64,000 nt of DNA, from the NCBI GenBank assembly GCA_017470165.1, contig JAFUEX010000012.1, positions 8,149-72,148 on the forward strand, read 5' to 3'. The translations under genes were made by a program, and so were the position numbers. Source of the stretch: Alphaproteobacteria bacterium. GTDB taxonomy: Bacteria > Pseudomonadota > Alphaproteobacteria > RF32 > CAG-239. The notes under the pieces are model-generated. The model had not been told where the DNA came from. It made no database searches and saw only the letters and a list, made by a program, of their open reading frames with translations. This document shows positions 12,924 to 15,955 of this stretch, one piece after another. The first letter of the stretch is position 1. Each line of letters starts with the position of its first letter.

Positions 12924-13955
12924 CTAATCCAAATTGATACCTTTTTGCTTGCAACGGTTGAGCCATTGCAGTTTGGCATATTTTTGCATATCGGTAATGG
13001 TGTCGGTTTCATCCACAATCTCTTTACCGATAATGGTTTCGATGATGTCTTCAAGGGTGATGATACCCACCCAGTTGCCCAGTTGATCAACCACCAAAGA
13101 CATATGGTTGTGGTCTTCCAGCATTGCCGAAAGTACATCTTGCAATTTGGCTTCGGGAGAAAAAGAGCGCATATCACAGGAAAATTTTTTCACTTTGTCG
13201 TCATCTTTGGCCTTAAAGGAGCTTGATTTGTGGATATAGCCCTTAAAAATCTGCTTGGCCTCATCAATAATAGGAAAGCGCGAAAAAGGCGCGGTCGTGA
13301 GGAATTTGTCAAATTCTTTAATCGTCATATCCGGCTTGACGGTGCGCACAACCGTACGCGGGGTCATCACATCTTCGATATTTATTTGCTTGAGGTTAAT
13401 AGTGTTGACCAAAATGCGATATTCAACATCATCAATCACCCTTGCGGCTTGTCCCATTCGGGATAAGGCTTTGATTTCCTCGCGGGTGTTGGAGCAATCG
13501 ACCGCAGCATTAAAACGCTTGGTAATAAGGTTGGACAGCCAAATAAACGGCCGCATTATCACAGTAAGAAAAGACAAAGCCGGAACTAACAGCGGAATTA
13601 GGCGTTTCCAATATCTGGCGCCGATGGATTTGGGCAAAATTTCCGAGAAGGTGAGAATGGCAAAAGTCATAATACCGCTGGCAATGCCGATATATTCCTG
13701 TCCGAAAATTTGCGACACTTCCGCACCGACTCCGGTGGCGCCGACCGTGTTGGCAATGGTGTTAAGTGACAAAATTGCCGCCAGCGGCTCGTTGATGTGT
13801 TCTTTCATATCCGAAAGTTTGGCAAACAATTTGGGCTTTTGGTCTTCCAGTTGGGATATATAGCTCGGCACTATGGACAACAATGATGCCTCTAATACCG
13901 AACAAATAAACGATATGATAACAGCAGTAGCGGCAAATAAAATCAAATAAAACAT
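12924..13955 (-). CDS. CNNM/TlyC-family membrane protein (DUF21 plus CBS pair)
   Basis: The N-terminus has a 4-TM DUF21-like region. It is followed by a CBS-pair-like region (DVMTPRT...PIIDE...LVVDQLGNWVGIITLEDIIE). Confidence 0.85.
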   Translation of the reverse strand: MFYLILFAATAVIISFICSVLEASLLSIVPSYISQLEDQKPKLFAKLSDMKEHINEPLAAILSLNTIANTVGATGVGAEVSQIFGQEYIGIASGIMTFAILTFSEILPKSIGARYWKRLIPLLVPALSFLTVIMRPFIWLSNLITKRFNAAVDCSNTREEIKALSRMGQAARVIDDVEYRILVNTINLKQINIEDVMTPRTVVRTVKPDMTIKEFDKFLTTAPFSRFPIIDEAKQIFKGYIHKSSSFKAKDDDKVKKFSCDMRSFSPEAKLQDVLSAMLEDHNHMSLVVDQLGNWVGIITLEDIIETIIGKEIVDETDTITDMQKYAKLQWLNRCKQKGINLD

Positions 13956-14116
13956 ATTCTCTTGAACCGGAGTTGTTAATGATAAAAAGGTCTATAACAA
14001 ATTTTTAGGCAAAAATAAAGCATTATTTTTACGGCTATGGAGTAGTTTTAATAAAATACGGAATTACATTTTGCCATCATAAACTGCCTTGAAAGGTAAA
14101 AACAGGAGAAATTGAA

Positions 14117-15427
14117 GTGAATAACGATAAAAATGCCAGTGTTTACAACATCAATAAAGAATATCGCATAGTTAATTTGAAGGGAAATAAGTGCTCGTTG
14201 TTTTTTAAGAACAAGCAAAATATGCTGTTGGCAACTTTGGAGGGCTGCGGGCAGGTGTTGACCAATATTCTGACCAGCTCCGAGCGTGATTTGAGTGAGA
14301 TTGAAAAGGGATATTTATTGTCGTTTATTCGCGCCAAAAAATATTCCATCGCCAAAGAAGTGGCCGAGTTTTTGAGTGTGTCAATCATTCAATACGAAGA
14401 CGGGCGGGAAGAATATTTGTCCGAAAAAATGCTCAAAAAACGGATTGCCTCCGGCATCAATTTTGCCAAAGTTTTTGTGGGCAAACTAAAGAGCGCGCAT
14501 CTGATTATTCCGGCCGAAACCCGTAATTGCAGTTATAACTTGAGCAAGGCGGAAGTAGGAGTATTGACGCTGGAAGAAGGTAACAGTATCAATATTGATT
14601 TACGGGATAATGAATTTGTCGAAAGATTGGTGATAAAAGACAAGTTTTCCGGAACTTTGAGTTTGGCGCGCACTAATCTTGAGAGTGTGGCAATCGGCAA
14701 CAACTGTCGCTGCAATTTGATGATGAGTGATTCGAAAAAATGTGTCAATTTGCAAATCGGCGATGTTTTGAGCGGCAACATAAACATTATTAACAGTTGT
14801 TTATATGCGCTTAATATCGGTTATTATGCTTATGCCGATATTATGCTGTCAAACAATACGGTGAAAAAAGAAATCGCAATCGGTGATGCGTTTCGCGGCG
14901 GTATTTATGCGATTAATCAGGCAACCGATTGGTTTAAAATCGGCAATGATTGCAAAGGGTGGGTTAAACTGAATAATCAAAATATTATCTCCGGAGTAAG
15001 AAACTTGCTGGCGGATAATGATTTTGCCGGAAATATTAACTTATCAGGAGACGGCAGTGTGCGCAACATTAATATCGGCGAAAGATTGATGGGCAAGATT
15101 GATGCTACTTATGCCGGAGGACTGGAAAGAGTGGTGATTGGCAAATATTTTAACGGGACGGTGGATTTGAGCGGGGCAAAAGTGCGGCAGGTTTTTGCCG
15201 ATTACGGAGCCAGCGGGGTGGTCAATTTGCAAAACTGCCGGCAGATTGATTTTTTGCAGGCTACGGTGGATAATGATTTGCAGATTACCGGCGAGATAAA
15301 ATCAGTGGATGCATTGTCGGGAGACGGCAAGATAATGTATTATTTTCGCGATAGAGACAATGATGCAGTAAAAGTGCCGCTATTAAAGCGTTGGTACCAA
15401 AATTGGCATAATAAATATCGTCTGTAA
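14117..15427 (+). CDS. HTH domain protein with a C-terminal tandem-repeat (beta-solenoid-like) region
   Basis: The GTG start has aggag 7 nt upstream. Residues about 62-110 look XRE-HTH-like (YSIAKEVAEFLSVSIIQYEDGRE). Residues about 170-385 carry some 10 repeats with period 20-24 and consensus xIGdxfxGxixl. Confidence 0.6.
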   Translation: MNNDKNASVYNINKEYRIVNLKGNKCSLFFKNKQNMLLATLEGCGQVLTNILTSSERDLSEIEKGYLLSFIRAKKYSIAKEVAEFLSVSIIQYEDGREEYLSEKMLKKRIASGINFAKVFVGKLKSAHLIIPAETRNCSYNLSKAEVGVLTLEEGNSINIDLRDNEFVERLVIKDKFSGTLSLARTNLESVAIGNNCRCNLMMSDSKKCVNLQIGDVLSGNINIINSCLYALNIGYYAYADIMLSNNTVKKEIAIGDAFRGGIYAINQATDWFKIGNDCKGWVKLNNQNIISGVRNLLADNDFAGNINLSGDGSVRNINIGERLMGKIDATYAGGLERVVIGKYFNGTVDLSGAKVRQVFADYGASGVVNLQNCRQIDFLQATVDNDLQITGEIKSVDALSGDGKIMYYFRDRDNDAVKVPLLKRWYQNWHNKYRL

Positions 15428-15429
15428 AA

Positions 15430-15448
15430 TGTTACAATTTTGTTACAA
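15430..15448 (+). promoter_or_regulatory. direct repeat tgttacaa x2 with 11-bp phasing, immediately upstream of a -35 element
   Basis: aaaaTGTTACAAtttTGTTACAAatgg, read directly. It looks like an operator or activator site. Confidence 0.35.
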
Positions 15449-15453
15449 ATGGC

Positions 15454-15482
15454 TTGTGTTTTACCGAAAAATATGGTATATT
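15454..15482 (+). promoter_or_regulatory. putative sigma70 promoter with extended -10
   Basis: ttgtgt, 17 nt, then (tgg)tatatt. It shares aaaaatatggtata with the promoter at 47069-47097. Confidence 0.4.
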
Positions 15483-15515: not shown

Positions 15516-15884
15516 ATGAAAACAGCTAATAAAAAAGGGCTAAACTTCCTTGAGGCGATTGATAGGCCGCATCTGAGGAAGGATGAGTTGTTTGCGGCGT
15601 TGTTTACAGCCTGCGGCAGCGGAGATAATGTGAATGCCAACCATGTGTTTTTTCAAGATGTAATTGTTAAATTTAATGCTCAAAAGGCAAGGGGGATGAT
15701 ATTACGCAACTCAGAATTGGCAACCCCCAGTCATTATGTTGATGTGGCATTGGGCAAATATTTGGAGATGGGTTTGCCGATTAAGCAATTCAACGCTGAT
15801 TTACAAGAGGCAAAACTGCAGCGTGAGGCGATGCTCGGAGCAATTGCCAAAAAAAAAGCCGTGAGCTTTGAGCGGCTGAATTGA
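15516..15884 (+). CDS. hypothetical protein (122 aa)
   Basis: ORF track entry with a good SD (aaggagaagg) upstream. No family recognised. Confidence 0.55.
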   Translation: MKTANKKGLNFLEAIDRPHLRKDELFAALFTACGSGDNVNANHVFFQDVIVKFNAQKARGMILRNSELATPSHYVDVALGKYLEMGLPIKQFNADLQEAKLQREAMLGAIAKKKAVSFERLN

Positions 15885-15908: not shown

Positions 15909-15955
15909 ATAAAAAAATTCCGTCGTTTTCTCTCCTTTACGACGGAATTTTTTTC
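15909..15955. terminator. bidirectional terminator between convergent genes
   Basis: attccgtcg...cgacggaat stem flanked by an A-run and a T-run. Confidence 0.7.

Follow-up and report, generated by a model that had tools for sequence, protein, structure and literature searches.

What does the orphan gene at positions 14,117 to 15,427 of a 64,000-nucleotide (nt) stretch of alphaproteobacterial DNA encode, and is its product a DNA-binding regulator? The stretch, taken from contig JAFUEX010000012.1 of assembly GCA_017470165.1 and called the window below, comes from a genome of 1.45 Mb with 45% G+C. An original prediction, made from the letters alone, had read the gene product as a helix-turn-helix (HTH) domain fused to about ten tandem repeats of roughly 21 residues and had proposed an uncharacterised beta-solenoid regulator. 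We report that the product, here called the solenoid protein, carries a predicted beta-solenoid of 13 rungs followed by a cationic amphipathic helix, and that it belongs to a real, selected and conserved gene family that is new at the sequence level and in its combination of domains and is of a known structural kind. The function that we favour, with a chance that we put a little short of even, is that of a membrane-associated binding scaffold or adaptor, not of a transcription factor.

The repeats are significant in both profile-profile and single-sequence comparisons. When residues 165-275 were compared with residues 276-385 by hhalign in an alignment of 36 family sequences, the two halves matched with P = 1.3e-11, and two alternative alignments of the same halves, offset by whole rungs, reached P = 2e-8; as a control, the internal-repeat test was run on the N-terminal domain and gave no repeat similarity (E = 0.4-0.7). 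In the single sequence, the best off-diagonal local self-alignment of residues 151-400 scored 55, against 33 +/- 6 for shuffled sequences, of which 1 in 100 reached 55. BLOSUM self-similarity over residues 126-395 peaked at lag 41 (z = 6.4) and at lag 21 (z = 3.2), the 95th percentile of the shuffle maximum being 3.2. The anchors read earlier (residues 172, 192/193, 214, 234, 254/255, 275, 299, 320, 341 and 361) give a clean rung register, and the Ile or Ala anchors of the complete set fall at residues 131, 151, 172, 193, 214, 234, 255, 275, 299, 320, 341, 361 and 380. The periodicity of the original prediction therefore holds and its count is revised, to 13 rungs rather than about ten, over residues 126-395. 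The rung consensus is h-x-x-L-x-I-G-[DN]-[DN]-[FC]-x-G-N-[IL]-[ND]-[LI]-S-[ND]-S-x. Two rung types, "F-x-G-x-I-N-L-S" and "C/x-x-G/C", alternate along the protein, and the duplicated unit, as read from the sequence, is a double rung of 41-42 residues. A metal site formed by the cysteines C197, C199, C209, C228 and C374 was considered and set aside, their positions being taken by F, G, V or L in other rungs; the conserved cysteines look like structural core or ladder residues, which is the simpler reading.

We modelled the protein with AlphaFold2 (AF2) from the family alignment. The model has a mean pLDDT (predicted local distance difference test) of 90.2 and a pTM (predicted template-modelling score) of 0.81, and it shows a solenoid running from residue 117 to about residue 410, with two short strands in each rung of about 21 residues and block-mean pLDDT values of 90-98; the beta-solenoid proposed at the outset is thus borne out. 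As modelled, the shape may be either a curved one resembling leucine-rich repeat (LRR) proteins or a straight parallel beta-helix. The alpha/beta module ahead of it (N-module) comprises five strands (residues 7-53), helices at 61-73 and 80-85, a hairpin with strands 89-93 and 98-101, and a helix at 103-112, and is basic, with an isoelectric point (pI) of 9.06. Rungs 2-8 are the best conserved and hold the invariant or near-invariant motifs DLRDN, F-x-G-x-x-NLSR, NNCRC, D-x-x-SG, GYYSYAD, FRG and DCKG, with invariant residues D161/R163/D164/N165, R185, N196, S219, Y236/Y237/Y239, R260 and D278/K280; rungs 9-13 and the linker are far more variable. The solenoid is followed by cap strands at residues 396-398 and 405-409 and by a stretch in which pLDDT falls below 50 (415-419), residues 396-420 being the least conserved segment of the protein (mean identity 0.33).

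The C-terminus is a feature of its own. A near-invariant proline, P421, precedes a helix that AF2 places at residues 422-435, at low pLDDT and detached from the body of the protein. The character of this helix is kept across 36 orthologues even where its sequence has changed: the last 20 residues have a hydrophobic moment of 0.44-0.80 (median 0.61, in the top percentile within each protein), a net charge of 0 to +7 (median +3), a richness in Arg and Lys and about five aromatic residues. MinD and FtsA carry terminal amphipathic helices that target them to the membrane, and we compared our helix with theirs for position, linker and cationic and aromatic character. It has the features of that type, being terminal, amphipathic, cationic and joined by a flexible linker; neither MinD and FtsA nor the bactofilins show sequence or domain homology to the solenoid protein. 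Neither a signal peptide nor a transmembrane segment is present in the solenoid protein (maximum Kyte-Doolittle value 1.06 over 19 residues), and we therefore place it, as a prediction, in the cytoplasm.

Comparison with known families yielded likenesses rather than a membership. The window protein matched no Pfam family at E <= 10, and likewise none of NCBIfam, and scans of the solenoid protein and of its 122-amino-acid (aa) neighbour against PHROGs and PADLOC gave nothing usable. Among 36 relatives scanned against Pfam at E <= 1 we found no repeat or solenoid family and chance matches only, for example DUF3800 in six of them at E >= 1e-3. Searches of Protein Data Bank (PDB) sequences with the single sequence, the family profile and a rung-only profile returned nothing significant; a match to the GNAT protein 3d8p (E = 0.065) falls inside the solenoid and was rejected as chance. 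Foldseek searches of the PDB and BFVD with both models gave no match at E <= 1e-3. Phage PcfJ-like proteins appeared with probabilities of 0.97-1.0 over 55-135 columns at E values of 0.07-0.9, and we made no use of them, the part of the query that they matched being unreported. The statement of the original prediction that the repeat is neither a pentapeptide repeat nor a bactofilin stands, and family scans and Foldseek on the AF2 model linked the protein to no well-characterised family. Each candidate was examined in turn. The pentapeptide repeat (PF00805) was rejected on the lack of a Pfam match and of any 5-residue sub-period, self-similarity appearing only at lags 41 and 21; bactofilin (PF04519) gave no match in the window protein at E <= 10 or in the 36 relatives at E <= 1; the BspA/TpLRR repeat (LRR_5, PF13306) gave none at E <= 1 in the 36 members; and for the PbH1, Beta_helix and pectate-lyase class there was no hidden Markov model (HMM) match in the 36 members, Foldseek matches to GH28 enzymes, capsule lyases and TPS domains had E values of 0.45-4 and TM-scores of 0.18-0.28, and each modelled rung has two strands.

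The nearest repeat pattern is that of the FGxxFN/FNIP LRR (PF05725), whose FGxxFN form has a period of 21-22 residues. Its published consensus is LxxLxFGxxFNQxIxxxxLPxx, with a 21-residue variant VxxLxFGxxFNQxIxxxIPxx, and the described FGxxFN proteins, for which Crov588 and Crov539 structures exist, come from giant viruses, Dictyostelium and algae and none of them from bacteria (PMC9525666). The first ten positions are common to the two, LxxLxFGxxF in FGxxFN and [IVL]xx[LIV]x[IV]Gxx[FC] in the solenoid family, so that the 21-22-residue repeat starts alike save for the first Phe, which is Ile or Val here, and in both the Gly is followed by a buried spine residue that is aromatic or Cys. They differ further along the rung: the solenoid family has F-x-G in place of FN, no Asn at the ladder position, no (I/L/W)P sub-motif and no conserved Pro. 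The best PDB match by Foldseek was 7zal, an FGxxFN LRR of Cafeteria roenbergensis virus (E = 0.29, probability 0.57, TM-scores 0.28/0.38, not significant), and giant-virus FNIP and LRR proteins were also among the BFVD matches; the FNIP Pfam model matched none of the 36 members, and the rung and full profiles missed 7zal in the PDB sequences. The solenoid family thus resembles the FGxxFN repeat class and is not a member of it.

Two further likenesses are more distant. The repeats of BspA/TpLRR proteins are also rich in beta structure, span about 21-25 residues and show an I-G-x-x-(A)-F motif with Cys at core positions, a likeness that is only a lead. The register of F and G/C is one position off between the two, and BspA-like proteins are typically found at the surface, whereas the solenoid family is predicted to be cytoplasmic and has no signal peptide. 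The best PDB match by sequence profile was FlrP (8z5u), of the Vibrio polar flagellar rod, whose G-x-[LI]-x-[LA] rungs align with solenoid rungs 9-12 over about 70 residues (E = 0.7, not significant). Unlike the solenoid protein, FlrP has neither the N-module nor the C-terminal amphipathic helix; its depositors call it a beta-solenoid LRR, and it is a periplasmic protein of 21.5 kDa with a Sec signal (bioRxiv 10.64898/2025.12.04.692373).

The family is narrowly distributed. A word-indexed search retrieved 56 full-length homologues of about 430-445 aa and 29-69% identity, among which there is no Pfam domain and no informative name, and when 1.84 billion cluster representatives were searched exhaustively with phmmer, only 34 matched; a profile that included the most distant members did not extend the family. 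All named records are metagenome-assembled genomes, and they belong to uncultured Alphaproteobacteria of the rumen, sheep colon and human gut. Within the order the gene is present as a single copy in 56 of 151 genomes, all of them in one taxonomic family, where it occurs in 9 of 20 genera, and a sample of 401 genomes of the class held no convincing match outside that family (one other match had E = 9e-4 over about 100 positions). No internal stops occur in the gene across the 56 carrier genomes. The protein retains about 53% identity between relatives whose RpsD retains about 90%, and so evolves faster than its housekeeping neighbours. A 562-aa protein (P0086) taken up as a possible relative proved to be an unrelated repeat protein, and two short "N-domain only" matches (P0087 and P0089) were rejected as stand-alone domains, since they look truncated at contig ends.

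Natural variants show which parts can be dispensed with. In the window's own genus the solenoid gene occurs in 28 of 35 genomes; in the other seven the 122-aa gene and its operator stay in place, as do the RNHCP, TPR (tetratricopeptide repeat)-methyltransferase and rpsD genes on the flanks, a pattern which suggests that the solenoid gene was lost cleanly and repeatedly, or was inserted late. In the genus here called g2 the proteins have about 351 aa and start near the equivalent of residue 100, and the genomes hold no separate copy of the N-module. In a 334-aa variant rungs 1-8 and the C-terminal helix are kept and rungs 9-13 are absent. Rungs 1-8 plus the terminal helix are thus common to every variant examined, and these natural deletions point to them as the working parts.

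Because of this architecture, the predicted location and the pattern of kept and lost parts, we favour a scaffold or adaptor at the membrane. The C-terminal helix would tether the solenoid protein to the cytoplasmic membrane, on its inner face, much as MinD and FtsA are tethered by theirs; a binding surface for a protein or a small ligand may be formed by the residues that are invariant in rungs 2-8; and the solenoid protein may work with the downstream 122-aa protein, which is predicted to have five helices. Several points weigh against this interpretation. That the protein binds a membrane and a ligand, and that it interacts with the 122-aa protein, is what we infer; the invariant residues are placed by rung from the alignment, and their line-up on one face is assumed; and the cationic amphipathic C-terminus also fits a secretion signal or a docking helix. 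The pairing with the 122-aa gene is not obligatory, as that gene stands without the solenoid gene in the seven same-genus genomes, and in at least one distant lineage no partner follows the solenoid gene. Finally, a weak XRE-like similarity in the N-module (P ~1e-3) leaves some room for DNA binding. What we describe is a catalogue-level finding and not a solved mechanism: a family of about 430 residues, covered by neither domain databases nor solved structures and having a confidently predicted fold, in uncultured small-genome gut and rumen Alphaproteobacteria for which almost nothing functional is on record.

The XRE-like stretch is the basis of the regulator reading put forward at first, which placed the HTH at about residues 62-110; as a one-component regulator, the protein would bind DNA through this HTH, and the solenoid would sense a signal or oligomerise. 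The N-terminal region is co-linear with an XRE HTH (helix 1, S-x-x-E-[LV]-A-x-x-L-x-V-S, Y-E-D-G): against an HTH_3 profile made from a clean 12-sequence alignment of the same lineage, hhalign aligned residues 66-115 with P values of 1e-3 to 2e-3 and a probability of 14-22%. The basic pI of the N-module and a conserved, genome-unique operator just behind the gene would also suit a regulator. However, the HTH_3 score comes from a 10-column core (KEVAEFLSVS vs eLAxxLGVS), which can be extended co-linearly only if three residues are deleted where the recognition helix (helix 3) begins; neither HTH_3 (PF01381) nor any other HTH HMM matched the window protein (E <= 10) or the 36 relatives (E <= 1); and a six-frame HTH_3 scan of the genome at E <= 1e-6 found six loci, none of them at the solenoid gene (C2:22265-23572). 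In the AF2 model the HTH-like stretch consists of the helix at residues 80-85 followed by the beta-hairpin, with block-mean pLDDT values of 92-95 over residues 81-110. The XRE-like HTH of the original prediction is at most a degenerate one; the stretch is possibly the fossil of an XRE-type HTH, remodelled into the alpha/beta module, and it is a warning that what looks like an HTH in the bare sequence may be a structural relic. The operator speaks to the same question. TGTTACA-N4-TGTTACA, which starts 3 nt past the solenoid stop codon, is unique in the 1.45-Mb genome at <=1 mismatch, and is thus a putative dedicated operator. It is retained, together with the promoter behind it, in the same-genus genomes that have cleanly lost the solenoid gene, and it is retained in genus g2, where the solenoid protein lacks the N-module. 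The solenoid protein is therefore unlikely to be its regulator; the operator belongs to the neighbour gene, and the 122-aa protein is a candidate for its binder. Taken together, a regulatory role for the solenoid protein is disfavoured, and we hold it to be highly unlikely.

Three other functions can be set beside the membrane scaffold. The solenoid protein might be a translocated effector, its LRR-like solenoid aimed at a target in a host or competitor and its charged tail serving as a signal for a VirB/D4-type type IV secretion system (T4SS). LRR-type solenoids are common among secreted bacterial effectors. All 13 genomes tested from this bacterial family, the present one among them, encode a VirB4-like ATPase, so that a type IV system seems to belong to the core of these small genomes, and the present genome also encodes VirD4/TraG-type coupling proteins; the tail has the Arg/Lys-rich charge described above; and the gene is patchily distributed (absent from 7 of the 35 same-genus genomes) and evolves faster than its housekeeping neighbours. 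The features of a VirB/D4 substrate, a charged C-terminus together with a T4SS and a coupling protein, are thus present, although they are necessary and not sufficient. Described VirB/D4 signals are hydrophilic and disordered, whereas this tail is predicted to be a strongly amphipathic, aromatic-rich helix; the gene does not lie near the T4SS cluster (contig C14, ~30.8-43.6 kb), is single-copy and keeps a stable chromosomal position beside housekeeping genes; and there is no sign that this T4SS secretes proteins rather than transferring DNA. We judge secretion unlikely. An enzyme of the beta-helix kind, in which the invariant D, R, N, Y and K residues on rungs 2-8 would line a catalytic groove for a membrane-proximal glycan or lipid-linked substrate, appears improbable as well. 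It would account for invariant charged and aromatic residues on seven successive rungs, and polygalacturonases, capsule lyases and tailspike depolymerases are among the weak Foldseek matches; in genus g2 and two other lineages the gene also has glycosyltransferase-like neighbours, named so by the appearance of their sequences only. Yet the HMM scans, TM-scores and rung architecture already given argue against it, the TM-scores to beta-helix enzymes being just 0.18-0.28 and the rungs having two strands instead of three; such enzymes are usually exported, while the solenoid protein is predicted to be cytoplasmic; and a binding site would explain invariant residues on one side of a solenoid just as well. 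Bactofilins follow the same module logic as the solenoid protein, a cytoplasmic beta-solenoid with a terminal helix like those that target membranes, which raises the idea of a polymer built on the membrane from solenoids joined end to end, to which other proteins would be recruited. In the model, however, both ends look capped, one by the N-module with helix 103-112 and the other by the cap at residues 396-410, and these capped ends argue against end-to-end polymerisation; no member matches the bactofilin model, and rung length and pattern are unlike those of bactofilins. Of all the functions considered here, polymer formation has the slimmest chance.

Table 1. Features of the solenoid locus, in window coordinates.
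Feature	Position	Strand	Details
Promoter-like block (TAGTTTT ... ATTACAT)	14043..14070	+	putative; suggested by its recurrence in relatives
Shine-Dalgarno AGGAG	14104..14108	+	read from the sequence; 8 nt before GTG
Solenoid gene	14117..15427	+	436 aa; GTG start, TAA stop
N-terminal alpha/beta module	14117..14461	+	residues 1-115; AF2 secondary structure
Degenerate XRE-HTH-like segment	14300..14452	+	residues 62-112; weak hhalign similarity
Beta-solenoid, 13 rungs	14492..15301	+	residues 126-395; period 19-24, mostly 20-21
Conserved core, rungs 2-8	14552..14995	+	residues 146-293; per-rung conservation and invariant columns
C-terminal cap and flexible linker	15302..15376	+	residues 396-420; AF2
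C-terminal cationic aromatic amphipathic helix	15377..15424	+	P421-L436, PLLKRWYQNWHNKYRL
Operator-like direct repeat TGTTACA-ATTT-TGTTACA	15430..15447	+	upstream of the 122-aa gene promoter; conserved in 16 loci
122-aa gene promoter	15454..15482	+	-35 TTGTGT 15454-15459, 17-nt spacer, extended -10 TGgTATATT 15474-15482
122-aa gene, five-helix orphan protein	15516..15884	+	AF2 pLDDT 87; conserved
Bidirectional intrinsic terminator	15911..15954	.	shared by the 122-aa and TPR-methyltransferase genes, which converge on it

The protein of the 122-aa gene matched no known fold or family, and the family that it forms is as much an orphan as the solenoid one. In all close relatives a homologue of the gene follows the solenoid gene at a distance of about 100 nt; a homologue is found downstream also in lineages whose flanking genes differ, and one adjoins the most distant solenoid member (21% identity; hhalign probability 93%); the two genes thus co-occur in most lineages, an association whose survey had been suggested with the original prediction. 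The operator, a 7+4+7 direct repeat with 11-bp phasing, resembles the sites of OmpR/PhoB-type regulators, and the promoter pattern CTTGT ... TG-n-TATAtT is conserved in all related loci. A promoter string, AAAAATATGGTATA, common with a gene 31 kb away, was considered as the sign of a regulon and rejected: with two occurrences in all, it amounts in essence to an extended -10 element. No hairpin was found between the solenoid and 122-aa genes.

A more elaborate version of the scaffold or adaptor reading joins these elements. The solenoid protein would be a new FGxxFN-like adaptor, tethered to the membrane by its C-terminal amphipathic helix and with a fossil HTH as its cap, and the five-helix protein its partner, autoregulated by way of the TGTTACA-N4-TGTTACA operator, the two genes making up a circuit for sensing or partner sequestration. 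We regard this combination as distinctly unlikely as a whole; if true, an FGxxFN-like LRR, of a repeat type described to date only from giant viruses and protists, would have been recruited in gut Alphaproteobacteria.

The limits of the solenoid gene itself are well founded. Its open frame extends only 8 codons upstream of the GTG, and relatives start with GTG or ATG behind comparable GGAG or GGAGA sites, so the GTG start is sound, and the open reading frame with a well-placed Shine-Dalgarno sequence given in the original prediction agrees with both the sequence and the relatives. Blocks resembling the promoter-like one (c-t-a/g-G-T-T-T-T, ~14 nt, gATATTAcAT) recur 5' of orthologues at no fewer than 10 loci, that is, at least 10. 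The gene upstream, which is divergent (window 12924-13955, minus strand), encodes a CNNM/CorC-type transporter. A gene of this type again adjoins the most distant family member (21% identity), an adjacency that may be inherited synteny instead of a functional link.

At the other end of the locus, the bidirectional terminator has a 16-bp stem with an A-run and a U-run and a 12-nt loop (-21.5 kcal/mol, z = -4.3); a consensus terminator scan missed it on account of that loop. Elsewhere in the genome, the VirB4-like gene (809-813 aa) sits on C14 within a cluster of genes for large membrane or exported proteins, and two VirD4/TraG-type genes lie at 152.4-154.0 kb of C15 and at 23.0-24.3 kb of C5. 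Most of the 120-121-aa orthologues of the 122-aa protein end in [FY]-[AV]-[NS]-A (FANA, YANA, FVSA), and the window copy ends in SFERLN; judging by its sequence, the [FY]-[AV]-[NS]-A terminus could be a degradation or recognition tag.

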